From: Escherichia coli
Lineage (GTDB): Bacteria > Pseudomonadota > Gammaproteobacteria > Enterobacterales > Enterobacteriaceae
Reading direction: 5' to 3' (one strand)
Assembly: GCF_051903065.1 (NCBI RefSeq)
Contig: NZ_CP178438.1
Length of the DNA stretch: 64,000 bases
Positions 655 through 25,895 of the stretch are shown one piece after another (positions within the stretch are counted from its first letter, which is position 1; each line of letters begins with the position of its first letter). The notes below the pieces were generated by a model, which did not search any database, was not told the origin of the DNA, and saw only the letters and a list, made by a program, of their open reading frames with translations. Both the position numbers and the translations under genes were made by a program.

Positions 655-803
655 TTGCGACTACACTCCTCGCTGTTGCTTCATGGCACAGCGTTAACGC
701 TATGTACATAGCAGCTAAAAAAATGATGAAATAGTCTATCACTTAACTTAATTCACATCACCGCCTGCAAGTATGTGTTATCTGGCGGATTGAGCAATTT
801 ATC

Positions 804-1400: not shown

Positions 1401-1659
1401 TATTGGACGTTTGTTAATGCTCTGCGTTTGGGGATTTTTAATCCTCAACCTGGTGCATCCCTTCCCGCGCCCGCTGAATATTTTCGTTAACGTGGCGCTG
1501 ATTTTTACCGTGCTGATGCATGGTATGCAGCTGGCGCTGTTGAAATCGACCTTGCCGAAAGATGGCCCGCAGATGACCACCGCCGAAAAGGTGCGGATTT
1601 TCCTTTTCGGCGTGTTTGAACTGCTGGTCTGGCAGAAGAAATTTAAAGTTAAAAAATAA
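1390..1659 (+). CDS. yhhL: Small inner-membrane protein YhhL (DUF1145)
   Basis: ATG at 1390 inside longer ORF 1267-1659; hydrophobic 89-aa product MLINIGRLLMLCVWGF...; overlaps rsmD stop by 11 nt. Confidence 0.75.
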   Translation: MLINIGRLLMLCVWGFLILNLVHPFPRPLNIFVNVALIFTVLMHGMQLALLKSTLPKDGPQMTTAEKVRIFLFGVFELLVWQKKFKVKK

Positions 1660-1661
1660 CC

Positions 1662-2021
1662 TTATTGTTCGCCAACAAAGCTGACAAAGCGCGTTCCTTT
1701 ATAGCTCAGCGTACCTTTATCGCCCACTGTCAGGGCGTGGTACTGCTGGGCGTCGAGGCGAAACGTCTGCTCCATTCCTCCGCTTTGCGGTTTGAAGCTT
1801 GCCTCATAGCGCATACTGGTGCCTGCCGGAGTCACTTCCTGCTGGCGCGAACGGCGATCGTTAATCGGTTTTTCCCGCTTGTTGCTCACCACCACCAGCT
1901 TTTGCTGGAGCGGTGCCATATCATTATCAGCTTTTTCCCGTCGCTGTTGCATAAAACGAAACGATGCGGCGACGATGATTAAGCCAATGATAACAATAAA
2001 GAAAAGAGGTGGTTTGCTCAT
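1662..2021 (-). CDS. yhhM: YhhM (DUF2500) membrane-anchored protein
   Basis: 119-aa ORF with N-terminal TM helix; stop lies 2 nt from yhhL stop (convergent). Confidence 0.8.
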   Translation of the reverse strand: MSKPPLFFIVIIGLIIVAASFRFMQQRREKADNDMAPLQQKLVVVSNKREKPINDRRSRQQEVTPAGTSMRYEASFKPQSGGMEQTFRLDAQQYHALTVGDKGTLSYKGTRFVSFVGEQ

Positions 2022-2161
2022 CTTTATCCCTCATCGGAAAATGCGGAATTAAGCATACCCTGCCAGTTATGGTGTTGTCATCCGTCCACCCTCGCCACTA
2101 AACTGGAAGCAAGACCGTAGGCATTCCGCCTACGAAAAAATAACGAATTCAAGGAACTAAG

Positions 2162-2788
2162 ATGCTTTGGTCGTTTATCGCTGTCTGTCTTTCCGCATGG
2201 CTATCTGTGGATGCATCGTATCGTGGGCCAACCTGGCAACGCTGGGTGTTTAAACCGTTAACCCTTCTTCTCCTGTTGTTACTGGCCTGGCAAGCGCCGA
2301 TGTTCGACGCCATTAGCTATCTGGTGCTGGCGGGGCTGTGCGCCTCACTGCTGGGCGATGCGCTAACCCTGTTGCCACGTCAACGTCTGATGTACGCCAT
2401 CGGCGCGTTTTTCCTCTCGCACCTGCTGTACACCATCTATTTCGCCAGTCAGATGACGCTCTCTTTCTTCTGGCCTCTGCCGTTGGTACTGCTGGTTCTG
2501 GGCGCGCTGTTACTGGCGATTATCTGGACGCGGCTGGAAGAGTATCGTTGGCCTATCTGCACGTTTATCGGCATGACGCTGGTGATGGTGTGGCTGGCAG
2601 GTGAACTGTGGTTCTTCCGTCCGACCGCTCCGGCACTCTCTGCGTTTATCGGCGCTTCGTTGCTGTTTATCAGTAACTTTGTCTGGCTGGGTAGCCACTA
2701 TCGCCGACGCTTCCGTGCGGATAACGCCATTGCCGCAGCGTGTTATTTTGCCGGTCACTTCCTCATCGTCCGCTCGCTGTATCTCTGA
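2162..2788 (+). CDS. yhhN: YhhN-family integral membrane protein
   Basis: 208-aa polytopic membrane ORF, synteny upstream of zntA. Confidence 0.85.
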
Positions 2789-2794
2789 TAAAAC

Positions 2795-2826
2795 TTGACT
2801 CTGGAGTCGACTCCAGAGTGTATCCT
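2795..2826 (+). promoter_or_regulatory. MerR-type (ZntR) promoter/operator of zntA
   Basis: -35 TTGACT (2795-2800), perfect 22-bp palindrome ACTCTGGAGTCGACTCCAGAGT (2798-2819), -10-like TATCCT (2821-2826); the 20-bp spacer is characteristic of MerR-family promoters. Confidence 0.7.
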
Positions 2827-2861
2827 TCGGTTAATGAGAAAAAACTTAACCGGAGGATGCC

Positions 2862-5060
2862 ATGTCGACTCCTGACAATCACGGCAAGAAAGCCCCTCAA
2901 TTTGCTGCGTTCAAACCGCTAACCACGGTACAGAACGCCAACGACTGTTGCTGCGACGGCGCATGCTCCAGCACGCCACCTCTTTCTGAAAACGTCTCCG
3001 GCACCCGCTATAGCTGGAAAGTCAGCGGCATGGACTGCGCCGCCTGTGCGCGCAAGGTAGAAAACGCCGTGCGCCAGCTTGCAGGCGTGAATCAGGTGCA
3101 GGTGTTGTTCGCCACCGAAAAACTGGTGGTGGATGCCGACAATGACATCCGTGCCCAGGTTGAATCTGCGGTGCAAAAAGCGGGCTATTCCCTGCGCGAT
3201 GAACAGGCCGCCGAAGAACAACAAGAATCGCGCCTGAAAGAGAATCTGCCGCTGATTACGCTAATCGTGATGATGGCAATCAGCTGGGGTCTGGAGCAGT
3301 TCAATCATCCGTTCGGGCAACTGGCGTTTATCGCGACCACGCTGGTTGGGCTGTACCCGATTGCTCGTCAGGCATTACGGCTGATCAAATCCGGCAGCTA
3401 CTTCGCCATTGAAACCTTAATGAGCGTAGCTGCTATTGGTGCGCTGTTTATTGGCGCAACGGCTGAAGCTGCGATGGTGTTGCTGCTGTTTTTGATTGGT
3501 GAACGACTGGAAGGCTGGGCCGCCAGCCGCGCGCGTCAGGGCGTTAGCGCGTTGATGGCGCTGAAACCAGAAACCGCCACGCGCCTGCGTAACGGTGAGC
3601 GGGAAGAGGTGGCGATTAACAGCCTGCGCCCTGGCGATGTGATTGAAGTTGCGGCGGGCGGGCGTTTGCCTGCCGACGGTAAACTGCTCTCGCCCTTTGC
3701 CAGTTTTGATGAAAGCGCCCTGACCGGCGAATCCATTCCGGTGGAGCGCGCAACGGGCGATAAAGTCCCTGCTGGAGCCACCAGCGTAGACCGTCTGGTA
3801 ACGCTGGAAGTGCTGTCAGAACCGGGTGCCAGCGCCATTGACCGGATTCTGAAACTGATCGAAGAAGCCGAAGAGCGTCGCGCCCCCATTGAGCGGTTTA
3901 TCGACCGTTTCAGCCGTATTTATACGCCAGCAATTATGGCCGTCGCCCTGCTGGTAACGCTGGTACCGCCGCTGCTGTTTGCCGCCAGCTGGCAAGAGTG
4001 GATTTATAAAGGGCTGACGCTGCTGCTGATTGGCTGCCCATGTGCGTTAGTTATCTCCACGCCCGCGGCGATTACCTCCGGGCTGGCAGCAGCGGCACGT
4101 CGTGGGGCGTTAATTAAAGGCGGTGCGGCGCTGGAGCAGCTAGGTCGTGTTACCCAGGTGGCGTTTGATAAAACCGGTACGCTGACCGTCGGTAAACCGC
4201 GCGTTACCGCGATTCATCCGGCAACGGGTATTAGTGAATCTGAACTGCTGACACTGGCGGCGGCGGTCGAGCAAGGCGCGACGCATCCACTGGCGCAGGC
4301 CATCGTGCGCGAAGCACAGGTTGCTGCACTCGCCATTCCCGCCGCCGAATCACAGCGGGCGCTGGTCGGGTCTGGCATTGAAGCGCAGGTTAACGGTGAG
4401 CGCGTATTGATTTGCGCTGCCGGGAAACATCCCGCTGATGCATTTGCTGGTTTAATTAACGAACTGGAAAGCGCCGGGCAAACGGTAGTGCTGGTAGTAC
4501 GTAACGATGACGTGCTTGGTGTCATTGCGTTACAGGATACCCTGCGCGCCGATGCTGCAACTGCCATCAGTGAACTGAACGCGCTGGGCGTCAAAGGGGT
4601 GATCCTCACCGGCGATAATCCACGCGCAGCGGCGGCAATTGCCGGGGAGCTGGGGCTGGAGTTTAAAGCGGGCCTGTTGCCGGAAGATAAAGTCAAAGCG
4701 GTGACCGAGCTGAATCAACATGCGCCGCTGGCGATGGTCGGTGACGGTATTAACGACGCGCCAGCGATGAAAGCTGCCGCCATCGGGATTGCAATGGGCA
4801 GCGGCACAGACGTGGCGCTGGAAACCGCCGACGCAGCATTAACCCATAACCACCTGCGCGGTCTGGTGCAAATGATTGAACTGGCACGCGCCACTCACGC
4901 CAATATCCGCCAGAACATCACTATTGCGCTGGGGCTGAAAGGGATCTTCCTCGTCACCACGCTGTTAGGAATGACCGGACTATGGCTGGCGGTGCTGGCA
5001 GATACGGGTGCGACGGTGCTGGTAACGGCGAATGCGTTAAGGTTGTTGCGCAGGAAATAA
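2862..5060 (+). CDS. zntA: Zn/Cd/Pb-exporting P1B-type ATPase ZntA
   Basis: 732 aa; N-terminal metal-binding GMDCAAC, CPC transmembrane motif (IGCPCALV), DKTGTLT phosphorylation motif, GDGINDAP. Confidence 0.95.
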   Translation: MSTPDNHGKKAPQFAAFKPLTTVQNANDCCCDGACSSTPPLSENVSGTRYSWKVSGMDCAACARKVENAVRQLAGVNQVQVLFATEKLVVDADNDIRAQVESAVQKAGYSLRDEQAAEEQQESRLKENLPLITLIVMMAISWGLEQFNHPFGQLAFIATTLVGLYPIARQALRLIKSGSYFAIETLMSVAAIGALFIGATAEAAMVLLLFLIGERLEGWAASRARQGVSALMALKPETATRLRNGEREEVAINSLRPGDVIEVAAGGRLPADGKLLSPFASFDESALTGESIPVERATGDKVPAGATSVDRLVTLEVLSEPGASAIDRILKLIEEAEERRAPIERFIDRFSRIYTPAIMAVALLVTLVPPLLFAASWQEWIYKGLTLLLIGCPCALVISTPAAITSGLAAAARRGALIKGGAALEQLGRVTQVAFDKTGTLTVGKPRVTAIHPATGISESELLTLAAAVEQGATHPLAQAIVREAQVAALAIPAAESQRALVGSGIEAQVNGERVLICAAGKHPADAFAGLINELESAGQTVVLVVRNDDVLGVIALQDTLRADAATAISELNALGVKGVILTGDNPRAAAAIAGELGLEFKAGLLPEDKVKAVTELNQHAPLAMVGDGINDAPAMKAAAIGIAMGSGTDVALETADAALTHNHLRGLVQMIELARATHANIRQNITIALGLKGIFLVTTLLGMTGLWLAVLADTGATVLVTANALRLLRRK

Positions 5061-5092
5061 AGGTGTTGCCTGATAGCCTCTGGCTATCAGGG

Positions 5093-5401
5093 TTAGTGCT
5101 GGGCCGGGAACGGTGGCATGGTCAGGAAAGTGTAATATAGCGCTAACATCAGAATGACGGAGATAACACAACATGTAGCAACCAGGCGGGACGTGAATGA
5201 TGGCCTTTTGAACATCAACCACAGGGCATAAGCAAGCCCGACGCCGTTAAGTAAAGGTAAAAAAATCATTAGCCAGAGCCAACCACAGGCAAGTACCCCC
5301 AGCCATCCCCCCACGGCGATTAAAACAGGCATCAGCCAATTGGGGGCGAACATCGCGAACAATCCCAGCAATCCCAGGCAAACAGGAATTAAATAATCCA
5401 T
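5093..5401 (-). CDS. Hypothetical small Trp-rich membrane protein (uncertain)
   Basis: 102-aa ORF with 3 predicted TM segments and E. coli-like codon usage in the zntA/tusA convergent spacer; weak Shine-Dalgarno; identity not recognised. Confidence 0.3.
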   Translation of the reverse strand: MDYLIPVCLGLLGLFAMFAPNWLMPVLIAVGGWLGVLACGWLWLMIFLPLLNGVGLAYALWLMFKRPSFTSRLVATCCVISVILMLALYYTFLTMPPFPAQH

Positions 5402-5425
5402 TTGTGTATTCCATTACACTTGCTT

Positions 5426-5530
5426 GCCGGATGCGGCGTGAACGCCTTATCCGTCCTACGTACCGGTTTCAAGCAGCAACATTGAGTGCGATCGGTCCCC
5501 TCGCCCCTCAGGGGAGAGGGTTAGGGTAAC
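5426..5530. repeat. REP/BIME-like extragenic palindromic repeats
   Basis: GCCGGATGCGGCGTGAACGCCTTATCCGTCCTACG matches the REP consensus; followed by a second palindromic unit CCCCTCAGGGGAGAGGG. Confidence 0.6.
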
Positions 5531-5545
5531 AGTCCGTGATCCACC

Positions 5546-5791
5546 TTAACCACCTTTACGAATCAAATAACGATAAGGCAGTCCATCCGTCTCTTTGGCA
5601 ACCAGTTCGTGTTCCATAAAGGTACAAAACCCAGGGATATCGCGGGTCGTCGCCGGATCGTCAGCAATAATCAGCAACGTTTCACCTGGCTGCATATTGC
5701 GCACTGTTTTGCGCACCATCATTACGGGTTCCGGGCAGCGCAGGCCAAGTGCGTCGAGTGTGTGGTCAGGGCTGGAAAAGAGATCGGTCAT
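5546..5791 (-). CDS. tusA: Sulfur carrier protein TusA
   Basis: 81 aa with CPxP motif (LRCPEPV), TusA/SirA fold signature. Confidence 0.9.
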
Positions 5792-6011
5792 TTTCTTCTC
5801 ATCACATAAAAAAACGGCGCTAGTTTACGCCCTGTGAGTCCGTAAGCAAACCAGGTTAACGATTGCGTGAAAATTAACCATTGCATTGTCAACGTAAAGC
5901 AGTATCATGCGGCGGCTCGAAAAAAGGGTAAGCACGTTATTATGTTAAGGTAACAGACGTGTCGTACGTATTGGGTTCCCTCACCCCAATGGTTAATCAA
6001 AAAGGTACAAT

Positions 6012-6677
6012 ATGAACGTTTTCTCGCAAACTCAACGCTATAAGGCGTTGTTCTGGTTATCGTTATTTCATCTGCTGGTGATCACCTCCAGTAACTATCT
6101 GGTTCAGCTTCCCGTCTCCATTTTTGGTTTCCATACCACCTGGGGCGCGTTTAGCTTTCCGTTTATCTTTCTCGCTACCGACCTGACCGTACGTATTTTT
6201 GGCGCACCGCTGGCCCGTCGTATCATCTTTGCGGTGATGATCCCGGCATTGCTGATCTCCTACGTCATCTCGTCGCTATTCTATATGGGTTCCTGGCAGG
6301 GATTCGGCGCACTCGCCCACTTCAACCTGTTTGTCGCCCGTATCGCCACCGCCAGTTTCATGGCCTACGCGCTGGGACAGATCCTCGACGTGCACGTTTT
6401 TAACCGCCTGCGTCAGAGTCGCCGCTGGTGGCTGGCACCGACAGCGTCCACACTGTTCGGTAACGTCAGCGACACGCTGGCCTTTTTCTTCATTGCCTTC
6501 TGGCGTAGCCCGGATGCCTTTATGGCTGAACACTGGATGGAAATCGCGCTGGTCGATTACTGTTTCAAAGTGTTAATCAGTATCGTTTTCTTCCTGCCAA
6601 TGTATGGCGTATTACTCAATATGCTGTTGAAAAGACTGGCAGATAAATCCGAAATCAACGCTTTGCAGGCGAGTTAA
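6012..6677 (+). CDS. yhhQ: Queuosine precursor transporter YhhQ
   Basis: 221-aa polytopic membrane protein, synteny. Confidence 0.9.
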   Translation: MNVFSQTQRYKALFWLSLFHLLVITSSNYLVQLPVSIFGFHTTWGAFSFPFIFLATDLTVRIFGAPLARRIIFAVMIPALLISYVISSLFYMGSWQGFGALAHFNLFVARIATASFMAYALGQILDVHVFNRLRQSRRWWLAPTASTLFGNVSDTLAFFFIAFWRSPDAFMAEHWMEIALVDYCFKVLISIVFFLPMYGVLLNMLLKRLADKSEINALQAS

Positions 6678-6749
6678 AGGTTCGTTATCAGAGTTGTGAT
6701 AAGATGGATGAATGAGCCGTTATGGCCGTTTATCGAAAGGAAGAAGTCA

Positions 6750-7307
6750 ATGCGCAATCTGGTTAAATATGTCGGAATTGGCCTGCTGGTTATGGGGCTT
6801 GCGGCCTGTGATGATAAAGACACTAACGCTACGGCGCAGGGTTCGGTCGCGGAAAGTAACGCTACCGGGAATCCCGTCAACCTGCTTGATGGCAAGTTAA
6901 GTTTCTCGCTGCCAGCGGATATGACCGACCAGAGCGGTAAGCTGGGAACGCAGGCCAATAACATGCATGTCTGGTCCGACGCCACCGGGCAGAAAGCAGT
7001 CATCGTCATCATGGGCGATGATCCGAAAGAAGATCTGGCGGTGCTGGCGAAGCGCCTGGAAGATCAGCAACGTAGCCGCGATCCGCAGCTGCAAGTAGTG
7101 ACCAACAAAGCCATTGAGCTGAAAGGTCACAAAATGCAGCAGTTAGACAGTATTATCTCCGCGAAAGGCCAGACGGCGTACTCTTCCGTTATTCTGGGTA
7201 ACGTGGGTAATCAACTGCTGACCATGCAAATTACTCTGCCAGCTGACGATCAGCAAAAAGCGCAGACCACCGCAGAAAACATCATTAATACGCTGGTTAT
7301 TCAGTAA
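6750..7307 (+). CDS. dcrB: Periplasmic lipoprotein DcrB
   Basis: Internal ATG at 6750 with AAGGAAG Shine-Dalgarno; lipobox LAAC; 185 aa. Confidence 0.85.
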
Positions 7308-7310
7308 GTT

Positions 7311-8528
7311 TTAAGATGATGAGGCGGCCTCAGGGACGTGTTCCGGAGGCCGTTTTTTTAATCGCCACGTCAGTAATAACGCGATTGCGACCAGTCCCGC
7401 CGCCGCCAGATAAATCACCGGGACGCCCGCCCAACTCATCACCAGCCCAGCCAGTGGTCCGGTCACGCCAAGCGATAAATCCATAAATACGGTGTAAGTT
7501 GCCAGCGCCGCCCCCTGATTTTGCTGCGGAACCGCTTTTACCGCCACTACACCCAATGCCGGGAATACCAGCGAAAACCCTGCCCCCGCCAGTAAGACGC
7601 CGATTTTCGCCATCCACGGCATAGTCGCCACGCCAACCAGCAGCAGGCCGATAATCTCAACGCTAAAGCAAATCATCGCTACGTTTAAGCCGCCGATACG
7701 GTTAATGCCGTTAGGGAATAACAAACGCGTACCGACAAACGCACAGCTAAACAGCGTCAGCGCGAAAGCCGCACCGTCCCAACCTTTAGCGTCATAAAAC
7801 AGCGTGATAAAGGTGGCGATGACGCCAAATCCGGCGGAAGCCAGTGCCAGCGCCATACCGTACAGCCAGACGCGCCCAAGCACCGCGCGAAACGGCAGCG
7901 GTTTGCCTTTACTGGCTTTTACCGTCGGACGCGGGAGCGCCAACAAAATGGCCACCAGCGCCACGCCCATAATGATTAACGCTAACGCCTGCAAGCCGCC
8001 CCAGTGATAAAACACGACGCCTAACGGCGCACCCATCGCCATCGCCCCATAAGTGACAATGCCGTTCCACGAAATCACCCGCCCGATATGCAGCGAGCCA
8101 ACCACGCCAACGCCCCACAGGGTCGATCCCGTTCCGGCAAAACTTTGCCCAATCCCAAGGATCACGCGTCCCAGGCAAAGTAATAACAGGCTGATGACGG
8201 GCAGACTGGCGGTTAATCCTGCCGTCAGATATCCCAGACCGCTCAAAAAGCAGCCGCATAAACCGAAGACGACAATCTTTTTGGGGCCCAGCAAATCGGC
8301 GTAACGTCCGGCATGAGGACGGCTCAGCAAGGTGGCAAAATATTGCAGGCTGATAACCAATCCTGCCCAGAAAGCGCTAAAGCCCATCACATCATGGACA
8401 TAGCCCGGTAATACAGCGAGCGGCAACCCGATGGTGAGGTAGCTGGCGAAGTTAAACATGACAATGGAGACAATGCGCAAATTCAGGCGCAATCCGTTTA
8501 GCGCGGGTTCGGCTACGGGTTCGGGCAT
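7311..8528 (-). CDS. yhhS: MFS transporter YhhS
   Basis: 12-TM MFS-like ORF; start taken at MPEPVAEPAL (8526-8528) rather than the longer ORF-track start. Confidence 0.85.
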   Translation of the reverse strand: MPEPVAEPALNGLRLNLRIVSIVMFNFASYLTIGLPLAVLPGYVHDVMGFSAFWAGLVISLQYFATLLSRPHAGRYADLLGPKKIVVFGLCGCFLSGLGYLTAGLTASLPVISLLLLCLGRVILGIGQSFAGTGSTLWGVGVVGSLHIGRVISWNGIVTYGAMAMGAPLGVVFYHWGGLQALALIIMGVALVAILLALPRPTVKASKGKPLPFRAVLGRVWLYGMALALASAGFGVIATFITLFYDAKGWDGAAFALTLFSCAFVGTRLLFPNGINRIGGLNVAMICFSVEIIGLLLVGVATMPWMAKIGVLLAGAGFSLVFPALGVVAVKAVPQQNQGAALATYTVFMDLSLGVTGPLAGLVMSWAGVPVIYLAAAGLVAIALLLTWRLKKRPPEHVPEAASSS

Positions 8529-8659
8529 GAGGATCACCACATTTTTACAACAGTGTTTCATTTTTACCACGTGCTGACGTGAAAATCAGCAGTAAGAATC
8601 AGAATATTGCTGGCGTGACTCCCGCTACACTTAATACAAAAAGTCACAAGGAAGCCCCA

Positions 8660-9709
8660 ATGGAAACCCCTCAACCCGATAAAACGGGCATGCACATTCT
8701 GCTCAAGCTGGCCTCGCTGGTAGTGATCCTCGCGGGCATTCACGCAGCGGCAGATATCATTGTGCAGCTGTTACTGGCGCTGTTTTTTGCCATCGTCCTC
8801 AACCCGCTCGTCACCTGGTTTATTCGTCGGGGAGTACAACGCCCCGTTGCCATTACGATTGTAGTGGTGGTGATGCTGATCGCACTAACCGCGCTGGTCG
8901 GCGTACTGGCGGCATCGTTTAACGAATTTATCTCTATGCTGCCGAAGTTTAATAAGGAGCTGACGCGCAAACTTTTTAAATTGCAGGAGATGTTGCCTTT
9001 TCTTAATTTGCATATGTCGCCGGAGCGAATGCTGCAGCGGATGGACTCGGAAAAAGTGGTTACCTTCACCACAGCGCTAATGACCGGGCTTTCCGGGGCA
9101 ATGGCGAGCGTGCTTTTGCTGGTGATGACCGTAGTTTTTATGCTGTTTGAAGTGCGCCACGTCCCTTACAAAATGCGTTTTGCATTGAATAATCCACAGA
9201 TTCATATCGCCGGACTACACCGCGCACTTAAAGGCGTTTCGCATTATCTGGCGTTAAAGACGCTACTCAGTTTATGGACAGGTGTCATCGTCTGGCTGGG
9301 GCTGGAGCTGATGGGGGTGCAGTTTGCGCTGATGTGGGCAGTACTGGCGTTTTTGCTCAACTACGTGCCCAATATCGGCGCGGTAATTTCCGCCGTACCG
9401 CCAATGATTCAGGTGCTGCTGTTTAATGGTGTTTACGAATGTATTCTGGTCGGCGCATTGTTTTTAGTGGTCCATATGGTCATCGGCAATATTTTAGAAC
9501 CACGGATGATGGGCCATCGCCTGGGGATGTCCACCATGGTGGTATTTCTTTCATTGTTAATTTGGGGATGGCTGCTCGGCCCGGTAGGGATGCTACTTTC
9601 GGTGCCATTAACCAGCGTGTGTAAAATCTGGATGGAAACGACGAAAGGCGGCAGCAAACTGGCGATTTTACTGGGGCCGGGCAGACCGAAAAGTCGGTTA
9701 CCGGGTTAA
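8660..9709 (+). CDS. yhhT: AI-2E family (PerM-like) transporter YhhT
   Basis: Start at METPQPDKTG (8660); polytopic membrane protein. Confidence 0.85.
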   Translation: METPQPDKTGMHILLKLASLVVILAGIHAAADIIVQLLLALFFAIVLNPLVTWFIRRGVQRPVAITIVVVVMLIALTALVGVLAASFNEFISMLPKFNKELTRKLFKLQEMLPFLNLHMSPERMLQRMDSEKVVTFTTALMTGLSGAMASVLLLVMTVVFMLFEVRHVPYKMRFALNNPQIHIAGLHRALKGVSHYLALKTLLSLWTGVIVWLGLELMGVQFALMWAVLAFLLNYVPNIGAVISAVPPMIQVLLFNGVYECILVGALFLVVHMVIGNILEPRMMGHRLGMSTMVVFLSLLIWGWLLGPVGMLLSVPLTSVCKIWMETTKGGSKLAILLGPGRPKSRLPG

Positions 9710-9720
9710 TAGCACCTCCT

Positions 9721-9729
9721 GAGCAGGCA
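9721..9729. repeat. Left copy of 9-bp target-site duplication (GAGCAGGCA) flanking IS1
   Basis: Identical 9-mer immediately precedes the IS1 left end and follows its right end (10498-10506). Confidence 0.85.
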
Positions 9730-9784
9730 GGTGATGCTGCCAACTTACTGATTTAGTGTATGATGGTGTTTTTGAGGTGCTCCA

Positions 9785-10060
9785 GTGGCTTCTGTTTCTA
9801 TCAGCTGTCCCTCCTGTTCAGCTACTGACGGGGTGGTGCGTAACGGCAAAAGCACCGCCGGACATCAGCGCTATCTCTGCTCTCACTGCCGTAAAACATG
9901 GCAACTGCAGTTCACTTACACCGCTTCTCAACCCGGTACGCACCAGAAAATCATTGATATGGCCATGAATGGCGTTGGATGCCGGGCAACAGCCCGCATT
10001 ATGGGCGTTGGCCTCAACACGATTTTACGTCACTTAAAAAACTCAGGCCGCAGTCGGTAA
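9785..10060 (+). CDS. insA: IS1 InsA
   Basis: 91 aa [39 protein letters not shown]... zinc-finger/HTH; GTG start. Confidence 0.9.
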
Positions 10061-10482
10061 CCTCGCGCATACAGCCGGGCAGTGACGTCATCGTCTGCGC
10101 GGAAATGGACGAACAGTGGGGCTATGTCGGGGCTAAATCGCGCCAGCGCTGGCTGTTTTACGCGTATGACAGGCTCCGGAAGACGGTTGTTGCGCACGTA
10201 TTCGGTGAACGCACTATGGCGACGCTGGGGCGTCTTATGAGCCTGCTGTCACCCTTTGACGTGGTGATATGGATGACGGATGGCTGGCCGCTGTATGAAT
10301 CCCGCCTGAAGGGAAAGCTGCACGTAATCAGCAAGCGATATACGCAGCGAATTGAGCGGCATAACCTGAATCTGAGGCAGCACCTGGCACGGCTGGGACG
10401 GAAGTCGCTGTCGTTCTCAAAATCGGTGGAGCTGCATGACAAAGTCATCGGGCATTATCTGAACATAAAACACTATCAATAA
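9979..10482 (+). CDS. insB: IS1 InsB frame (expressed as InsAB' transposase by -1 frameshift)
   Basis: 167-aa ORF overlapping insA 3' end in the -1 frame. Confidence 0.85.
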
Positions 10483-10497
10483 GTTGGAGTCATTACC

Positions 10498-10506
10498 GAG
10501 CAGGCA
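10498..10506. repeat. Right copy of 9-bp target-site duplication (GAGCAGGCA)
   Basis: Direct repeat of 9721-9729. Confidence 0.85.
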
Positions 10507-10865
10507 ATGGCCACCGTTTATCTAACAGTGGCCATTTGATTTGAGGAAATGATGAAACATTATTCAGAAAATTAATTTAAAAAAACCATTCCTTAAGTCA
10601 AATATATATAAACGCCGAATAGCGATTAAATCCTTCTCAAAGAATGCACTGATAACATTGTGTTATTTTTATTGCCTCATTTTTCTCACTCACTTATAGT
10701 TGGTCCCTGCTGGCAGTAATTTAGTCATTTCAGAGATTTTTACTCTGATGTGCACTTACTGACTTATCTCACAAGTAATTTTTTCTCTAAATAAAGAATA
10801 GTGATGCCAGCAATTACAGTTAAAACTTGCTTTACTCGTAAAAACAATACTTTAATGGGGTTCTA

Positions 10866-11255
10866 ATGAGACATTACATGAAATGGTTTGCGGCTATTGC
10901 TGTTGTGGGTGCTTTAGCGGGTTGCGCGCGTACTGCGCCAATTGATCAGGTTCACTCAACCGTCAGCGCTGGTCATACCCAGGAACAAGTGAAAAAAGCG
11001 ATTCTGAAAGCTGGCGTTGAACGCAAATGGATTATGTCCGAAGCCGGACAAGGCATAATTAAAGCACGTCAACAGTCACGCGATCATTCAGCGGAAATAC
11101 GCATTAACTACACGGCATCCAGCTACGATATCAATTATGAAAATAGCCAGAACCTTCAAGCGTCAGGCGGACAAATTCATAAAAACTACAATCGCTGGGT
11201 CCGCAATCTCGACAAAGATATTCAACTGAATTTGTCAGCGGGCGCAGATTTATAA
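10866..11255 (+). CDS. Putative lipoprotein, first gene of the biosynthetic island
   Basis: 129 aa with signal peptide and lipobox (VGALAGC); preceded by a 360-bp AT-rich leader. Confidence 0.6.
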   Translation: MRHYMKWFAAIAVVGALAGCARTAPIDQVHSTVSAGHTQEQVKKAILKAGVERKWIMSEAGQGIIKARQQSRDHSAEIRINYTASSYDINYENSQNLQASGGQIHKNYNRWVRNLDKDIQLNLSAGADL

Positions 11256-11314
11256 TTCCTCCTAAAGTCGGGCCGTTGCGGTCCGATAATAATTTAATTC
11301 CCTCTTAACAGGTT

Positions 11315-12382
11315 GTGCCCAACATGTACGAACAGGATTCTCTTAGCGCACTGGATGCGATTACCGAAGCTCAACGCATTGCCTTTGCCCCTATGCTTTT
11401 TCAAACAGCACTCTGCCTACGTAATGCGGGTGTACTTTCATATCTGGATCGGCAAGGCAAACATGGCGCAACGCTGGCTGATATCACCGAACATAGCCAT
11501 ATCAACGAATATGCTGCCAGCGTTCTGTTAGATATGGGCTTAAGCGGGCGAATTATTACCTGTAAAGAGGGAATTTATTACCTGGCGAAAATCGGTCATT
11601 ACCTCCTGCATGACACTATGACTCGCGTGAATATGGATTTCACCCAGGATGTCTGTTACCAGGGGCTCTTCTTCCTCGCCGATTCACTCAATGAAGGAAA
11701 ACCTTCCGGGTTAAAAGTATTTGGCGACTGGTCGACGATATATCCGGCACTTTCGCAATTACCAGACGCCGCTCGTGAAAGCTGGTTTGCGTTTGATCAT
11801 TACTATTCAGATGGCGCATTTAACGCCGCACTGCCTTATGTATTCGCCAACAACCCCACAACATTGTACGATGTAGGCGGCAATACGGGTAAGTGGGCTT
11901 TGCGTTGCTGCAAATACAATGAAAACATCGCCGTGACGTTATTAGATCTGCCACAACAAATCGTACTAGCGAAAGAAAATATCGCGAATGCAGGTTTTTC
12001 TGATCGCATAGATTTCCATGCGGTGGATATGCTAAGCGATGCCCCATTACCGGGCGAGGCTGATATCTGGTGGATGAGCCAATTTTTAGACTGTTTTTCA
12101 CCCGAACAAATAATTAGCATACTCAGCAAAATTGCCAGCGTAATGAAGCCTGGCGCAAAAGTTTGCATCATGGAGTTGTTCTGGGATGCGCAGCGGTTTG
12201 AAGCAGCATCGTTTAGCCTGAACGCGTCCTCACTTTATTTTACCTGCATGGCAAACGGTAACAGCCGTTTCTATAGTGCAGAGAAATTTTACGACTATCT
12301 GAATAAAGCAGGATTCCAGGTAGCAGAGCGCCACGATAATTTAGGCGTTGGGCATACACTTTTGATATGCCAAAAGAAATAA
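11315..12382 (+). CDS. Class I SAM-dependent methyltransferase (ApeB-like)
   Basis: 355 aa with glycine-rich SAM motif LYDVGGNTGKWAL; alternative ATG start at 11324. Confidence 0.8.
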   Translation: MPNMYEQDSLSALDAITEAQRIAFAPMLFQTALCLRNAGVLSYLDRQGKHGATLADITEHSHINEYAASVLLDMGLSGRIITCKEGIYYLAKIGHYLLHDTMTRVNMDFTQDVCYQGLFFLADSLNEGKPSGLKVFGDWSTIYPALSQLPDAARESWFAFDHYYSDGAFNAALPYVFANNPTTLYDVGGNTGKWALRCCKYNENIAVTLLDLPQQIVLAKENIANAGFSDRIDFHAVDMLSDAPLPGEADIWWMSQFLDCFSPEQIISILSKIASVMKPGAKVCIMELFWDAQRFEAASFSLNASSLYFTCMANGNSRFYSAEKFYDYLNKAGFQVAERHDNLGVGHTLLICQKK

Positions 12383-12422
12383 TCGTCACTTAATAATTTT
12401 GGTTTACCGCGGGCGCGCGTTG

Positions 12423-13145
12423 ATGAAATTTACATTAAATATTACCGACTGGCAGGCACTGGCGCCTGGACTTAGCGAAGCGCAGCAATGGCAAGCATGG
12501 TCGCGCCAGCCGTGGGCGATTGACCCTGCCGCGCCGTTGGCAAAATTAAGTGAACTGCCAATGATGACCGCCCGCCGCCTCAGTTCAGGCAGCAAACTGG
12601 CTGTTGAATGCGGTCTGGCAATGCTACGCCGCCATCAGCCAGACGCCGTTTTGTATACCAGTCGTCATGGCGAACTGGAGCGCAATTACCGCATTGTTCA
12701 TGCACTGGCAACCGAACAGGCGCTTTCTCCGACCGACTTCGCGCTCTCCGTACACAACTCTTCCGTGGGTAACCTGACCATTGCGGCCAAACAGCCGATC
12801 GTTTCGTCATCGCTTTCGGCTGGTCGCGACACTTTCCAGCAAGGTTTGTGTGAAGTGCTTAGCCTGTTACAAGCGGGATACCAGCGCGTGCTGATGGTCG
12901 ATTTTGACGGTTTCCTGCCCGAGTTTTATCACCCACAACTGCCATCAGAAATGCCGACCTGGCCGTACGCCGTCGCGCTGGTGATTGAAGCTGGCGATGA
13001 GTGGCAATGTGAAACGCAGTCAGCCATTGCGGGCAATGAAACAACACTGCCGCAAAGCATGTTGTTTTTACAGCACTATTTACAAAATGTAGACACATTT
13101 TCACTGCCTGGCGAGCGCGTGCAATGGCGCTGGAGCCACAGATGA
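12423..13145 (+). CDS. Ketosynthase N-terminal-domain-like protein, possible chain-length-factor partner (ApeC-like)
   Basis: About 240 aa, thiolase-like N-terminal half only; lacks the HGTAT and GHTLGA catalytic His motifs present in the two full ketosynthases of the island; start taken at ATG 12423. Confidence 0.6.
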   Translation: MKFTLNITDWQALAPGLSEAQQWQAWSRQPWAIDPAAPLAKLSELPMMTARRLSSGSKLAVECGLAMLRRHQPDAVLYTSRHGELERNYRIVHALATEQALSPTDFALSVHNSSVGNLTIAAKQPIVSSSLSAGRDTFQQGLCEVLSLLQAGYQRVLMVDFDGFLPEFYHPQLPSEMPTWPYAVALVIEAGDEWQCETQSAIAGNETTLPQSMLFLQHYLQNVDTFSLPGERVQWRWSHR

Positions 13146-13963
13146 GTAAGCTGATGTCACGTCTGGAGTGGACCTGGCGACTGGTCATGACCGGGTTATG
13201 TTTTGCCCTGTTTGGTCTCGGCGGCCTGCTGCTTTCTGTCGTGTGGTTTAACATATTGTTAGTTTTGGTGTGGGATACTTCCCGCCGCCGTCGTTTGGCG
13301 CGTCGCAGCATTGCCGCCAGTTTTCGCCTGTTTTTAACTGTCGCGAAAGGGCTTGGCGTGCTGGATTATCGTATTGATGGCGCTGAAATTTTACGTCAGG
13401 AACGCGGTTGCCTCGTCGTAGCCAATCATCCCACGCTGATCGATTACGTGCTGCTGGCGTCAGTCATGCCAGAAACTGACTGCCTGGTGAAAAGCGCACT
13501 GTTAAAAAATCCTTTTCTTGGCGGCGTCGTGCGGGCGGCAGATTATTTAATCAACAGCGAAGCTGAAACCCTGTTACCCCGCTGCCAACAGCGACTGGCA
13601 CAGGGTGACACTATCCTGATTTTCCCCGAAGGCACACGAACGAAGCCCGGTGAAAAAATGACGCTGCAGCGCGGGGCGGCGAATATTGCCGTGCGCTGCG
13701 CCAGCGATTTACGCATCGTGACAATCGGCTGTAGCGAGCATCTGCTGGATAAACAAAGTAAATGGTATGACGTTCCACCTGACCGGCCGTTTTTTACGGT
13801 TGCAGTCCATGGTCGGGTTGAAATCAATAAATTTTACGATGCAACTTCACAAGAACCGGCGCTGGCAGCAAGGCAGTTAAACCGGCATCTTTTGCTTCAA
13901 TTACAACAAGGTTGTTTACCTCTCTCAGGAATAAATAATGCAAGCGCTTTATCTGGAAATTAA
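13142..13963 (+). CDS. Lysophospholipid (PlsC-type) acyltransferase (ApeD-like)
   Basis: HX4D motif (NHPTLID) and FPEGTRT motif; N-terminal TM helix; ATG overlaps upstream stop (ATGA). Confidence 0.8.
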   Translation: MSKLMSRLEWTWRLVMTGLCFALFGLGGLLLSVVWFNILLVLVWDTSRRRRLARRSIAASFRLFLTVAKGLGVLDYRIDGAEILRQERGCLVVANHPTLIDYVLLASVMPETDCLVKSALLKNPFLGGVVRAADYLINSEAETLLPRCQQRLAQGDTILIFPEGTRTKPGEKMTLQRGAANIAVRCASDLRIVTIGCSEHLLDKQSKWYDVPPDRPFFTVAVHGRVEINKFYDATSQEPALAARQLNRHLLLQLQQGCLPLSGINNASALSGN

Positions 13964-14195
13964 AAACCTCATCATCAGCACCCTCAATCTGGACGAGTTG
14001 ACGCCTGATGATATCGATACCGACGCGCCGCTGTTTGGCGACGGTTTAGGGCTGGACTCTATCGATGCCCTGGAACTGGGACTGGCAGTAAAAAATGAGT
14101 ACGGCATCGTGCTCTCTGCGGAAAGCGAAGAGATGCGTCAGCACTTTTTCTCCGTCGCCACTCTGGCCTCTTTCATTGCTGCGCAACGTGCCTGA
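13938..14195 (+). CDS. Acyl carrier protein 1
   Basis: 85 aa with phosphopantetheine-attachment motif LGLDSIDALEL. Confidence 0.8.
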   Translation: MQALYLEIKNLIISTLNLDELTPDDIDTDAPLFGDGLGLDSIDALELGLAVKNEYGIVLSAESEEMRQHFFSVATLASFIAAQRA

Positions 14196-14206
14196 GGAAA
14201 GCCATC

Positions 14207-14458
14207 ATGACAGAACAACAAACCGTCTATCAGGAAGTCTCAGCCCTGCTGGTTAAGCTGTTTGAAATCGATCCGCAGGACATCAAACCTGAAGCGCGCC
14301 TGTACGAAGATCTGGAACTGGACAGCATCGACGCCGTTGACATGATTGTGCACCTGCAAAAGAAAACCGGTAAGAAAATCAAGCCGGAAGAGTTTAAAGC
14401 AGTGCGTACAGTCCAGGATGTCGTCGAGGCTGTAGAACGCCTGCTACAAGAAGCCTGA
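14207..14458 (+). CDS. Acyl carrier protein 2
   Basis: 83 aa with LELDSIDAVDM; GAGGAAAG Shine-Dalgarno. Confidence 0.85.
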   Translation: MTEQQTVYQEVSALLVKLFEIDPQDIKPEARLYEDLELDSIDAVDMIVHLQKKTGKKIKPEEFKAVRTVQDVVEAVERLLQEA

Positions 14459-14462
14459 TCTG

Positions 14463-15044
14463 ATGTCGGGCATTCGCTCGCTACCGATGATTAAGCTGCT
14501 GACTGGATTATTGCTGCTCGCCTGGCCGTTTGTGATTTGGTTTGGCTTAGCGCATAACGGCCTGCACTGGCTGTTACCGCTAATGGCGTTGCTGCTTTTG
14601 TTGCGTCTGCGCCAGACCCGTCGCCAGGCGGGGCCTTTACAAGCCGTCACGCAACTCGTCGCTGTCGTGGGCATCGCATTATGTGTCGCCAGCTTTATGT
14701 TGAAAACGCACCAGCTACTGCTGTTTTACCCGGTAGTGGTTAACGCGGTCATGCTGGCGGTTTTTGGCGGTTCGCTGTGGTCGGCAATGCCGATAGTTGA
14801 GCGGCTGGCGCGGTTGCAGGAGCCAGACCTCCCGGAAAAGGGCGTGCGCTATACCCGCCACGTCACGCAAATCTGGTGCGGCTTTTTCATCATTAACGGT
14901 GGAATTGCCCTCTTTACCGCGCTTTATGCCGATATGTCGTTATGGACCGCCTGGAACGGCATGATTGCTTATTTGTTGATGGGGACGTTAATGGCTGGTG
15001 AATGGCTGGTGCGCCGCCAGGTTATGAAAAGAGATCGCGCATGA
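14463..15044 (+). CDS. Integral membrane protein (ApeG-like)
   Basis: 193 aa, several predicted TM helices. Confidence 0.7.
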   Translation: MSGIRSLPMIKLLTGLLLLAWPFVIWFGLAHNGLHWLLPLMALLLLLRLRQTRRQAGPLQAVTQLVAVVGIALCVASFMLKTHQLLLFYPVVVNAVMLAVFGGSLWSAMPIVERLARLQEPDLPEKGVRYTRHVTQIWCGFFIINGGIALFTALYADMSLWTAWNGMIAYLLMGTLMAGEWLVRRQVMKRDRA

Positions 15045-16402
15045 AGCAGACCTTACCGCTTGCACGCTGGCTGACTGCGCCACGCCCTGATGACACACCC
15101 ATTGCGTGGCTGAACGAAAGTACCTGGACGCTGGGCGATTTGCGTCACGATGTCGCGCAACTTATCTGCCGCTTGCAGCAACAGCCGGGTGAACGCTGGG
15201 CGCTGTGCTTTGAGAACAGCTATCTGTTTATCGTTGCCCTGCTCGCCACGCTACACGCCGGAAAAACGCCGGTGCTTCCGGGGCATAACCGTGTTATCCA
15301 GCTTAACGAGCAACGTGAACTTTTTGATGGTGTGCTTAGCGACAGCGAACTTAACTGGCAAGGTTCATTGCTGTTGGTAGCAAGTTCCCCACAAGTCGCG
15401 ACACAATCCTTCACCTTTGCCGCTATAGCGCCAGAGGCTTATATCGAGCTGTTTACCTCCGGTTCCACGGGACAGCCGAAACGGGTGATTAAACCTGTTC
15501 ATTTGCTGGACCGTGAAGCAGAACTGCTGGCTGAACGATTAGGCGCACGTCTGGCGGATTGTCGTGTCATCGGTTCCGTATTGCCGCAGCATTTGTACGG
15601 CCTGACTTTTCGCGTTTTCCTGCCCATGGCGCTGGGATTACCCCTACATGCCGCCATGCTCTGGTATGTCGAACAGTTTGCCGCGTTGAGTCATCAGCAT
15701 CGCTATATCTTCATCAGCAGCCCGGCATTTTTGAAGCGTCTGGATACACAGCTTTCCCCACCGCCCGTTCAGGTGCTTCTCTCTGCTGGCGGTGAGCTAC
15801 CGTGGCAGGATGTACAACACACCGCGAGCTGGCTGCGCGTCTGGCCTGATGAAATCTACGGCAGCACGGAAACCGGCGTCATCGCCTGGCGCTACCGCGA
15901 ACAAGAGCAACGCCGCTGGCTACCCCTCCCAGGTATGCAGTTCCAGGCCGAAGGCGATGCCTTTCGCCTCTTTTCACCGCTGATAGCGGAAGATAACGGC
16001 CTGTTACTCGACGATATCTTACAGTTTAGCGAAGATGGTCAGTTCCATCTGATGGGGCGTCGTGGGCGCATCGTTAAGATTGAAGAAAAACGTATTTCAC
16101 TCCAGGAAGTAGAACAACGTCTACTGGCGCTGGACGGCATTCGCGAGGCGGCGGCAGTTCCCGTTACGCGCGGCGGGCGTCAGAGCATAGGCGTTTTGCT
16201 GGTGCTGGATGACGAAGCTCATCTGCAATGGCAGAACGGCGGCGGGCATAGCCAGGAAATGACCTGGCGGCGTTTACTGCGCCCGACGCTGGAGCCAGTT
16301 GCTATTCCGCGTTACTGGCGCGTTATTGATGAAATGCCAGTAAACAGTATGAACAAGCGTGTCTATGCGCAATTACAGGAGTTATTTCATGAAGCCCCAT
16401 GA
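15041..16402 (+). CDS. AMP-dependent acyl/aryl-CoA or -ACP ligase (adenylation enzyme, ApeH-like)
   Basis: AMP-binding motif FTSGSTGQPKRV; ATG overlaps upstream stop. Confidence 0.85.
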   Translation: MKQTLPLARWLTAPRPDDTPIAWLNESTWTLGDLRHDVAQLICRLQQQPGERWALCFENSYLFIVALLATLHAGKTPVLPGHNRVIQLNEQRELFDGVLSDSELNWQGSLLLVASSPQVATQSFTFAAIAPEAYIELFTSGSTGQPKRVIKPVHLLDREAELLAERLGARLADCRVIGSVLPQHLYGLTFRVFLPMALGLPLHAAMLWYVEQFAALSHQHRYIFISSPAFLKRLDTQLSPPPVQVLLSAGGELPWQDVQHTASWLRVWPDEIYGSTETGVIAWRYREQEQRRWLPLPGMQFQAEGDAFRLFSPLIAEDNGLLLDDILQFSEDGQFHLMGRRGRIVKIEEKRISLQEVEQRLLALDGIREAAAVPVTRGGRQSIGVLLVLDDEAHLQWQNGGGHSQEMTWRRLLRPTLEPVAIPRYWRVIDEMPVNSMNKRVYAQLQELFHEAP

Positions 16403-16742
16403 AATCGAGCGCCATCAGGCACAAACGAATCACCTTGAAATTGTTCTGCATCTCAGGGCGGATCTGTTCTGGTTTCGCGGTCATTTTGCCGTGCAACCAT
16501 TACTCCCAGGAGTTGCGCAAATCGATTGGGCGATGAGCTACGCGCTCAATCTGCTCGCGCCTGGCTGGCGTTTTCACTCCATTCAGAACATAAAATTCCA
16601 GTCTCCGTTGCTGCCGGAAAACCGCGTCACGCTCGCGCTTAACTGGCAGGAAGAACGCCAGATTCTGAGCTTTAGCTATCAGCGTCACGACGGTGACGCC
16701 CGCCACACCGCCAGTAGCGGGAAGATACGCCTATGTCGGTAA
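16389..16742 (+). CDS. Hotdog-fold dehydratase (FabA/FabZ-like)
   Basis: FRGHFAVQPLLPG catalytic-His motif. Confidence 0.75.
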   Translation: MKPHEIERHQAQTNHLEIVLHLRADLFWFRGHFAVQPLLPGVAQIDWAMSYALNLLAPGWRFHSIQNIKFQSPLLPENRVTLALNWQEERQILSFSYQRHDGDARHTASSGKIRLCR

Positions 16743-18409
16743 ACTTTTCTCCCTGCGTGTTGATCCCCTGCTACAACCACGGCGCGATGATGCCGGGCGT
16801 GCTGGCGCGTCTTAAGCCATTTAATCTGCCCTGTATTGTGGTGGACGACGGCAGCGATGCCGCCACGCAACAGCAACTGGACAGTCTGCTTGCCGAACAG
16901 CCTGGCGTGACCTTAATCCGCCTGGCAGAAAACGCAGGCAAAGGCGCGGCAGTGATGCGTGGCTTACAGGCAGCGGCAGACGCAGGGTTCAGCCATGCGG
17001 TGCAGGTGGATGCTGACGGTCAACATGCGATTGAAGATATCCCCAAACTGCTGGCACTCGCTGAACAACACCCTGCGGCGCTGATCTCCGGCCAGCCAAT
17101 TTACGATGACTCCATCCCCCGCTCACGGCTTTACGGGCGCTGGGTCACCCACGTCTGGGTATGGATCGAAACGCTCTCCCTGCAACTGAAAGACAGCATG
17201 TGCGGCTTTCGCGTTTATCCGGTTGCGCCAACGCTGCAACTGGCAAAACACGCCACCATCGGCAAGCGGATGGATTTCGACACTGAAGTGATGGTGCGCC
17301 TCTACTGGCAGGGAAACACCAGCTATTTCGTGCCGACCCGCGTCACCTATCCACTGGACGGGCTTTCGCATTTTGATGCCCTGAAAGATAACGTCCGCAT
17401 CTCGCTCATGCACACGCGTCTGTTTTTCGGCATGTTGCCGCGTATTCCTTCACTACTGATGCGCCGCTCTTCCAGCCACTGGGCGCGGCAGAGTGAAGTG
17501 AAAGGATTATGGGGAATGCGCCTGATGCTGCTGGTCTGGCGTCTGCTGGGAAGAACGGCGTTTAGCGCGCTGCTTTACCCGGTGGTGGGCGTCTACTGGC
17601 TCACTGCTGCTCGTGCGCGCAAAGCGTCGCAAGACTGGCTCGCCCGTGTACGACAGCATCAACCACAGGCGGCAAAACTCAACAGCTATCAGCACTTTCT
17701 ACGTTTCGGTAATGCCATGCTCGACAAAATCGCCAGCTGGCGCGGCGAGCTACAACTGGGGCACGATGTGCTGTTTGCGCCAGGCGCAGAAGCGGCGCTT
17801 GACGTCAGCGATCCGCGCGGCAAATTGCTGCTGGCCTCGCATCTTGGCGATGTGGAAGTGTGCCGGGCGCTGGCAAAAATTCAGGGCTACAAAACCATTA
17901 ACGCGCTGGTGTTTAGCGAAAACGCCCAACGCTTTAAACAGATAATGCAGGAGATGGCTCCTCAGGCAGGTATTAACCTGATGCCGGTAACAGATATCGG
18001 CCCGGAAACCGCCATCCTGCTGAAAGAGAAGCTGGATAACGGCGAATGGGTGGCGATTGTCGGTGACCGCATCGCCGTCACCCCGCAACGCGGCGGCGAC
18101 TGGCGCGTCTGCTGGAGTCCGTTTATGGGCCAGCCTGCGCCCTTCCCACAGGGGCCGTTTATTCTCGCGTCTATTTTGCGCTGCCCGGTGAATCTGATTT
18201 TCGCCCTGCGCCAGCGCGGCAAGCTGCATATTCACTGCGAAACCTTTGCCGACCCGCTGCTGTTGCCGCGTGGCGAACGCCAACAGGCGCTGCAAAACGC
18301 TATCGACCACTACGCCGCGCGTCTGGAACATTACGCGCTCCAGTCGCCCCTCGACTGGTTTAATTTTTTCGATTTCTGGCAACTGCCGGAAATTCAGGAC
18401 AAGGAGTAA
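16733..18409 (+). CDS. Two-domain glycosyltransferase family 2 / LpxL-type lipid acyltransferase fusion (ApeJ-like)
   Basis: N-terminus VVDDGSDAATQ and VDADGQH (GT2 DXD); C-terminal half resembles lauroyl/myristoyl acyltransferases. Confidence 0.8.
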   Translation: MSVNFSPCVLIPCYNHGAMMPGVLARLKPFNLPCIVVDDGSDAATQQQLDSLLAEQPGVTLIRLAENAGKGAAVMRGLQAAADAGFSHAVQVDADGQHAIEDIPKLLALAEQHPAALISGQPIYDDSIPRSRLYGRWVTHVWVWIETLSLQLKDSMCGFRVYPVAPTLQLAKHATIGKRMDFDTEVMVRLYWQGNTSYFVPTRVTYPLDGLSHFDALKDNVRISLMHTRLFFGMLPRIPSLLMRRSSSHWARQSEVKGLWGMRLMLLVWRLLGRTAFSALLYPVVGVYWLTAARARKASQDWLARVRQHQPQAAKLNSYQHFLRFGNAMLDKIASWRGELQLGHDVLFAPGAEAALDVSDPRGKLLLASHLGDVEVCRALAKIQGYKTINALVFSENAQRFKQIMQEMAPQAGINLMPVTDIGPETAILLKEKLDNGEWVAIVGDRIAVTPQRGGDWRVCWSPFMGQPAPFPQGPFILASILRCPVNLIFALRQRGKLHIHCETFADPLLLPRGERQQALQNAIDHYAARLEHYALQSPLDWFNFFDFWQLPEIQDKE

Positions 18410-18412
18410 AGG

Positions 18413-18835
18413 GTGCTTAACGATCCCCGATTTACCGCTGAAGTCGAGCTGACCATTCCCTTTCACGACGTCGATATGATGGGCGTGGCCTGGCACGGTA
18501 ACTATTTTCGCTACTTTGAAGTGGCCCGCGAGGCGCTGCTCAACCAGTTCAATTACGGCTATCGGCAGATGAAAGAGTCCGGTTATTTGTGGCCAGTGGT
18601 CGATGCGCGGGTGAAATATCGCCACGCTCTCACCTTTGAGCAACGCATCCGCGTGCGTGCGCATATCGAAGAGTTCGAAAACCGTCTGCGGATTGGCTAT
18701 CAGATTTTCGATGCCGAAACGGGCAAACGCGCCACCACCGGATACACCATTCAGGTCGCGGTCGACGAGCAAAGCCGCGAACTGTGCTTTGTCAGCCCCG
18801 ATATTCTGTTTGAACGCATGGGAGTCAAACCATGA
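18413..18835 (+). CDS. 4HBT/YbgC-type acyl thioesterase
   Basis: GTG start 7 nt after AAGGAG; HDVDMMGVAWHGNYFRYFE hotdog thioesterase signature. Confidence 0.8.
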   Translation: MLNDPRFTAEVELTIPFHDVDMMGVAWHGNYFRYFEVAREALLNQFNYGYRQMKESGYLWPVVDARVKYRHALTFEQRIRVRAHIEEFENRLRIGYQIFDAETGKRATTGYTIQVAVDEQSRELCFVSPDILFERMGVKP

Positions 18836-22305: not shown

Positions 22306-22306
22306 T

Positions 22307-25894: not shown

Positions 25895-25895
25895 T

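Follow-up and report, generated by a model that had tools for sequence, protein, structure and literature searches.

The window, the 64-kb stretch of Escherichia coli DNA analyzed here, carries a complete IS1 element directly beyond yhhT, and the observations strongly support a simple and recent transposition of a common IS1A-type isoform, without any other rearrangement, in an IS1-rich lineage. We consider it very probable that a recent, simple insertion accounts for the whole arrangement, in which a terminator-like hairpin has been displaced from yhhT, the aryl-polyene (APE) cluster downstream stays insulated, transcription is fed into IS1 itself, and the consequences for the host are close to neutral. 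The insertion is already known, being annotated in two public genomes, and it is ordinary IS1 biology.

An intact IS1A-type element

IS1 is the archetype of bacterial insertion sequences, and the copy in the window (positions 9730 to 10497, plus strand, as are yhhT, the ape genes, acpT, and the motifs described here unless stated otherwise) has all of the sequence-level features that define the family. It is 768 bp long, is of the IS1A type with both ends intact, and aligns to K-12 IS1A (NC_000913.3, 19796 to 20563) with 767 of 768 nucleotides identical. The sole mismatch, a G for T at position 10173, results in an S65R substitution in InsB; exact matches to the S65R InsB sequence are present on at least 1000 contigs, and it is a common natural isoform. 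The 23-nt terminal inverted repeats, GGTGATGCTGCCAACTTACTGAT at the left (IRL, 9730 to 9752) and ATCAATAAGTTGGAGTCATTACC at the right (IRR, 10475 to 10497, located in the inverted-repeat search), are complementary at 18 of 23 positions, and both ends are identical to those of K-12 IS1A. The promoter scan places the promoter-like site of IS1 (CTGCCA-16-TATGAT, 9737 to 9764) so that it overlaps IRL.

The coding capacity of the element is similarly complete. The product of insA (9785 to 10060; 91 aa) is the same as K-12 InsA with no residue changed, the insB frame extends from 9979 to 10482, and an A6C programmed −1 frameshift motif (AAAAAAC) is present at 10036 to 10042. After the −1 shift the fused InsAB' transposase frame (9785 to 10482) is open and intact over 232 aa, and the Zn_ribbon_InsA, HTH_Tnp_IS1, and DDE_Tnp_IS1 domains are all found in it (PF03811, E = 1.4e-19; PF12759, E = 1.7e-28; and PF03400, E = 3.5e-78, respectively); the NCBIfam transpos_IS1 model (NF033558) scores 245 bits against InsAB', with a cut-off of 100. 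These features correspond to the published description of IS1, with its length of 768 bp, weak promoter overlapping IRL, insA and insB', A6C motif, and 232-aa InsAB' (PMC12428005). Compared with K-12 IS1A and IS1E ("consensus" IS1; Smith et al. 2025, PMC12428005), the window copy has the same length, terminal repeats, InsA, A6C motif, and domains, as well as a 9-bp target duplication of the kind typical of IS1; it differs by one substitution (10173, S65R) and by its chromosomal site. The first-pass annotation had described a complete IS1 here, and the 768-bp length, the two ends, the A6C motif, and the intact 232-aa InsAB' frame bear this out. The intact parts, taken together with the recent insertion, argue for a copy that would be competent to transpose.

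We note one difference inside IS1 between the window and the genome of 23CRST027, which carries the same insertion. At position 10229 the sequences specify glycine at InsB residue 84 in the window and alanine in 23CRST027. The A84 InsB protein has no match in a large protein collection, and the difference suggests a private mutation, conversion involving another IS1 copy, or an error introduced when the 23CRST027 assembly was polished.

Junctions, empty site, and age of the insertion

Both ends of IS1 are abutted by a perfect 9-bp direct repeat, GAGCAGGCA, with the left copy at 9721 to 9729 and the right copy at 10498 to 10506. The chance of two 9-mers matching at fixed positions is 4^-9, or about 4e-6, and GAGCAGGCA has only one further occurrence in the 64 kb. 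The insertion has added 777 bases, consisting of the 768 bp of IS1 and the 9 duplicated bases, and no coding sequence is disrupted by it. All of the coordinates in the first-pass annotation proved correct by sequence reading and repeat searches, including those of the identical GAGCAGGCA on either side of the element. Flanking 9-mers that differed had been put forward as a sign of IS1-mediated rearrangement; the 9-mers match, so rearrangement is not indicated.

The distribution of the insertion was determined by a megablast search of 5,426 complete E. coli genomes using window positions 8700 to 11500 (2,801 bp) as the query. The full arrangement was recovered in four genomes, and the insertion is at exactly this site in two of the 5,426, 23CRST027 and 23CRST031, both from human feces in Ecuador; RefSeq already labels both copies as "IS1-like element IS1A family transposase." Over 64 kb, the window differs from 23CRST027 by three SNPs (10229, 31490, and 45419). 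Records lacking IS1 span exactly 2,024 bp, 777 bp less than the 2,801-bp query. A reconstructed empty site, in which 9300 to 9729 is joined to 10507 to 10900 so as to leave one 9-mer, has an exact match in strain ECNB21-M121, and a version of the joined site with two copies of the 9-mer is absent from that genome.

The comparison with ECNB21-M121 extends across the whole window, which is colinear with that genome and has no IS1 at this site. The alignment consists of two gap-free blocks, 1 to 9729 and 10498 to 64000, that overlap by exactly 9 bases of the subject, and mismatches number 9 over 63,223 bp (99.986% identity). Because this IS1-free relative is colinear and has one 9-mer, the insertion is a simple and recent transposition, and, judging from the alignment, it is younger than the very recent common ancestor with ECNB21-M121. 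A comparison with relatives lacking IS1 had been proposed at the outset, and it agrees with the original description of the insertion as recent and unrearranged, in that a single 9-mer, the same flanks, and the same order are seen in a genome 99.986% identical over 64 kb. In the megablast search the carriers have 37 matching places and ECNB21-M121, the closest IS1-free relative, has 29; one in each genome is this locus and the others are IS1 matches. These numbers are consistent with IS1 activity continuing in the lineage. The modest value of the locus is as a clean natural example of a dated IS1 event for which a near-identical strain supplies the corresponding empty site.

Displacement of a terminator-like hairpin from yhhT

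The gene upstream, yhhT (8660 to 9709 by the RefSeq annotation of 23CRST027), encodes an AI-2E family transporter (Pfam AI-2E_transport, E = 4.6e-85), and its coding sequence is intact, ending with a TAA stop codon at 9707 to 9709. Only 20 nt (9710 to 9729) separate the stop codon from IS1, and insA and yhhT are in the same direction. As the first-pass annotation had noted, IS1 lies 20 bp past yhhT and directly 5' of a hairpin (10506 to 10536), which it parts from the yhhT stop codon; the distance between the stop codon and the hairpin was 20 nt before the insertion and is 797 nt now. Together with its tail, TTTGATTTG, the hairpin constitutes a putative intrinsic terminator, formerly of yhhT (10506 to 10545), located by an inverted-repeat search and folding.

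The hairpin is slightly better than the 9-bp stem first described, as it has 9 bp, a C.A mismatch, a further 3 bp, and a 5-nt loop. It folds with −17.7 kcal/mol (z = −3.0 to −4.0 relative to shuffled sequences, with 0 of 200 shuffles being as stable), the stem contains GGCCAC/GUGGCC, and the interrupted tail UUUGAUUUG is next to it on the plus strand. On the minus strand the G.U that replaces C.A gives a perfect 13-bp stem (−20.4 kcal/mol), without a U tract, and any terminator function would therefore be one-directional, serving yhhT. The hairpin was not among the sites called by the simple terminator scan, and no Rfam family matches it, either with gathering thresholds applied across the whole window or at E ≤ 1 over positions 9600 to 10950. 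A scan for the stem as AATGGCCAC-N13-GTGGCCATTT in one representative genome per species gave 40 loci, all of them in unrelated taxa and none in the Enterobacteriaceae. Across six E. coli lineages, the leaders diverge at about 4% of positions but the hairpin does not change, and because it is invariant among these there is no covariation to count. It is missing from most E. coli, and both the K-12-type genomes and the leader of the CFT073-type APE cluster are without it.

It is plausible from these features that the hairpin serves yhhT as an intrinsic terminator, and plausible also that IS1 alters the yhhT 3' end. Transcripts of yhhT would enter IS1 via IRL, and their 3' ends would lie either within IS1 or at the original hairpin, now 777 nt more distant. 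IS1 is classically polar, and this polarity is Rho-dependent.

Probable transcription into IS1 and other insertions near apeA

By analogy with a described IS1 context, the likeliest main functional consequence would be yhhT transcription running straight into IS1. Because the hairpin is now downstream of the element, there is no terminator between yhhT and IRL. The promoter of IS1 itself is extremely weak and auto-repressed (PMC12428005), and Smith et al. 2025 found that when transcription arrives co-directionally from upstream, insAB' is transcribed more and IS1 transposes more, a terminator placed upstream having the opposite effect (PMC12428005). The arrangement is similar to that of IS1E in K-12 yrhA (PMC12428005), with insA co-oriented with the upstream gene and no terminator between the gene and IRL, but the window copy is 20 bp past a stop codon and not inside a gene. 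This IS1 copy is directly in the path of host gene transcription, a context that is reported to raise IS1 activity (PMC12428005). Nonetheless, the direction of any effect of transcription on IS1 is uncertain. Machida et al. 1983, judging by the title, reportedly describe the opposite direction for read-through into IS1, with respect to cointegration. For the host, the insertion is most likely near-neutral.

The yhhT-apeA stretch has also received IS1 in two other complete genomes. In strain 7CC an independent IS1 (L003, 4397 to 5164) is flanked by the duplication TAATGAGAC, at the equivalent of window positions 10864 to 10872, 5 bp before the annotated start of apeA. In strain Eco_23-3511 an independent IS1 (L004, 4579 to 5346) with the duplication GGACAAGGC, equivalent to window positions 11046 to 11054, is inside apeA. 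Each of these two nearby insertions has its own 9-bp duplication, the isoforms are 5 and 9 nt, respectively, from the window copy, and insA is in the same orientation. There are thus three independent IS1 events of the same orientation in the ∼770-bp yhhT-apeA stretch, distributed over four genomes, and no other IS types were found in this stretch among the 569 island-bearing genomes. Assuming about 10 IS1 copies per 5-Mb genome in 569 genomes, and ignoring shared ancestry, a stretch of this size would be expected to be occupied in something like one genome, and the three events, in four genomes, do not clearly exceed chance. Either a hot spot or selection acting on the APE cluster could lie behind them, and recurrent insertion of IS1 in the apeA leader may be of interest to studies of aryl-polyene regulation or loss in E. 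coli.

These insertions and the possible feeding of IS1 by yhhT bear on an alternative in which the site is not neutral, either because the copy is a fed and unusually active donor that aids IS1 expansion, or because the site is a hot spot or is under selection to retune or silence the APE cluster. We regard this as unlikely. If the fed-donor version is true, the copy would contribute to the IS1 expansion of the lineage (37 versus 29 matching places).

The APE leader and expression of the cluster

The APE cluster extends from apeA to apeR (10878 to 25894) and is followed by acpT (25896 to 26483), according to the annotation of 23CRST027 and PMC8253772; it is the "island" of the first-pass annotation. 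The first gene, apeA (10878 to 11255), is intact and encodes a lipoprotein (annotation, with the role from PMC8253772), and the gene order continues with a methyltransferase, a chain-length factor, an acyltransferase, and two ACPs, and later two ketosynthases (ending at 25894), acpT, and nikA-R; the roles of the ape genes are from Johnston et al. 2021 (PMC8253772). This order is like that of the APE cluster and acpT in E. coli O157:H7 EDL933 and CFT073 (PMC8253772), and the flanks of the window are 99.4% identical to those of O157:H7 genomes; relative to the EDL933 and CFT073 clusters, IS1 is at the left edge in the window lineage only. Similarity to the CFT073-type cluster is about 70% and is within apeA only, with the CFT073-type cluster lacking both the hairpin and the leader. 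A second APE cluster of the CFT073 type is present elsewhere in about 256 E. coli genomes, with the match confined to apeA (window 10923 to 11224). As cited in PMC8253772, earlier work reports that AcpT of O157:H7 EDL933 activates the ApeE and ApeF homologues of that strain in vitro.

Between the hairpin and apeA is an AT-rich leader (10537 to 10877, delimited by the G+C profile and the promoter scan), with a G+C content of 29 to 33% (10507 to 10866) versus 53% to the left of the site. The promoter scan and lineage comparison identify a conserved promoter-like site, TTGCCT-17-TATAGT (10672 to 10700), and this and the one belonging to IS1 are the only promoter-like sites on the plus strand. The possibility that a hybrid outward promoter had formed at the right-hand junction was rejected, as the scan shows no promoter-like site spanning that junction. 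The final A of the right copy of the target duplication is also the first base of the hairpin stem, and because of this the hairpin and its upstream context have been exactly regenerated. The hairpin is thus intact between the right end of IS1 and the leader, with its U-rich tail kept, and the AT-rich tract is not split by IS1, which is at its outer edge.

The first-pass annotation had raised the prospect that IS1 could read into the island. This is not supported, as an intact hairpin precedes the leader, the right junction has no promoter-like site, and the IS1 promoter is weak (PMC12428005). Read-through from IS1 into the APE cluster is unlikely because the hairpin is intact, no outward promoter-like site is present, and the AT-rich tract is unsplit. 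Rightward transcripts from IS1 would meet the same putative terminator hairpin that yhhT transcripts once did, and the hairpin would insulate the leader of the APE cluster along with the candidate promoter ∼175 bp past IS1. Because the hairpin still appears to insulate the leader, expression of the APE cluster is probably unchanged.

The contrary proposal is that IS1 changes APE expression, whether by read-through, by an outward promoter, or by a bgl-like disturbance of H-NS-type silencing. The precedent is bgl: promoters that are AT-rich and silenced by H-NS can be activated by an IS1 upstream, and at bgl the insertion of IS1 or IS5 within ∼200 bp ahead of the promoter lifts the repression by H-NS (PMC11043490). 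Like the silent bgl operon (PMC11043490), the APE leader has IS1 upstream of an AT-rich regulatory region and less than ∼200 bp from a candidate promoter; here IS1 is at the upstream edge of the 29 to 33% G+C leader and ∼175 bp from the conserved promoter-like site, and there are two more independent IS1 insertions in the leader and apeA stretch. By this analogy, bgl-like relief of silencing at the APE leader is possible. However, the window IS1 is at the outer edge of the tract and not between a silencer and a promoter, so that the whole AT-rich tract remains contiguous with the promoter; moreover, the terminator-like hairpin intervenes, the right junction is devoid of promoter-like sites, and the other two insertions, at the start of apeA and inside it, are more likely to inactivate than to activate. 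We therefore think a change in APE expression improbable, and favor an insertion that leaves the cluster insulated.

The significance of the insertion for the host is correspondingly small, with no gene broken, regulation of the cluster probably intact, and the insertion already annotated in two public genomes.

The island border and rejected origins of the arrangement

IS1 was initially placed at the "island border," and this is correct as to location. Comparison with K-12 puts the left border of island-specific DNA at 9705/9706, where K-12-type homology is lost, and IS1 is within 24 bp of this point. The partial matches all stop at query position 176, which is window position 9705, the third position of the final yhhT codon. 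In K-12 and about 4,850 of the 5,426 genomes, homology is lost at 9705 and regained 20 bp before acpT (25876 to 25895). In the K-12-type genomes a 38-bp filler replaces the cluster; a search of the window for its source gave only chance 9- to 10-mers. The K-12 state fits a deletion of the cluster that would have left acpT orphaned, because the last 20 bp of apeR are kept before acpT.

The border position has no causal meaning for IS1. Of the 569 genomes that have the cluster with this junction, 565 have no IS1 between yhhT and apeA. A role for IS1 in acquiring, mobilizing, or delimiting the island, which its position 24 bp from the loss of K-12-type homology might suggest, is thus refuted by the genome distribution: the 565 genomes have the junction, the leader, and the cluster without IS1 there, the insertion is limited to one very recent lineage, and the K-12 state with its last 20 bp of apeR fits deletion of the cluster. 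We give such a role essentially no credence, and conclude that IS1 had no part in the origin of the island because of these 565 genomes.

IS1 can mediate adjacent deletions, inversions, and cointegrates, and the genome has many IS1 matches (37 matching places), so that an IS1-mediated rearrangement, or a part of a composite transposon, has to be weighed against simple insertion. It is refuted by the single-copy empty site and full colinearity with ECNB21-M121, with flanks that are gap-free relative to this IS1-free genome over the whole window; in addition, the flanking 9-mers are identical and the repeat search found a single IS1, with only one IS1 end sequence, within the 64 kb. We consider this origin extremely unlikely. 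IS copies are also a classic source of mis-assembly, and there is a SNP inside IS1 (10229) between the window and 23CRST027, but an assembly artefact with an IS1 copy misplaced here is rejected as having a negligible probability, since the window shares these junctions with two independent complete assemblies, and a mis-join would not yield a precise 9-bp target duplication.

Other features of the window

Several other features of the window merit mention. Two RNA elements score above their Rfam gathering scores: an AgrB antisense RNA beside dinQ (54935 to 55018, plus strand; 107.7 bits), and a shuA/chuA 5' UTR RNA thermometer upstream of chuA (63768 to 63799, minus strand; 60.1 bits). A frameshifted pseudogene, annotated as "hypothetical protein" (57931 to 59047, plus strand), is situated between arsC and slp and is present in both 23CRST027 and ECNB21-M121. 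Finally, a hicA/hicB type II toxin-antitoxin pair (32037 to 32668, minus strand) is annotated between nikR and yhhJ.
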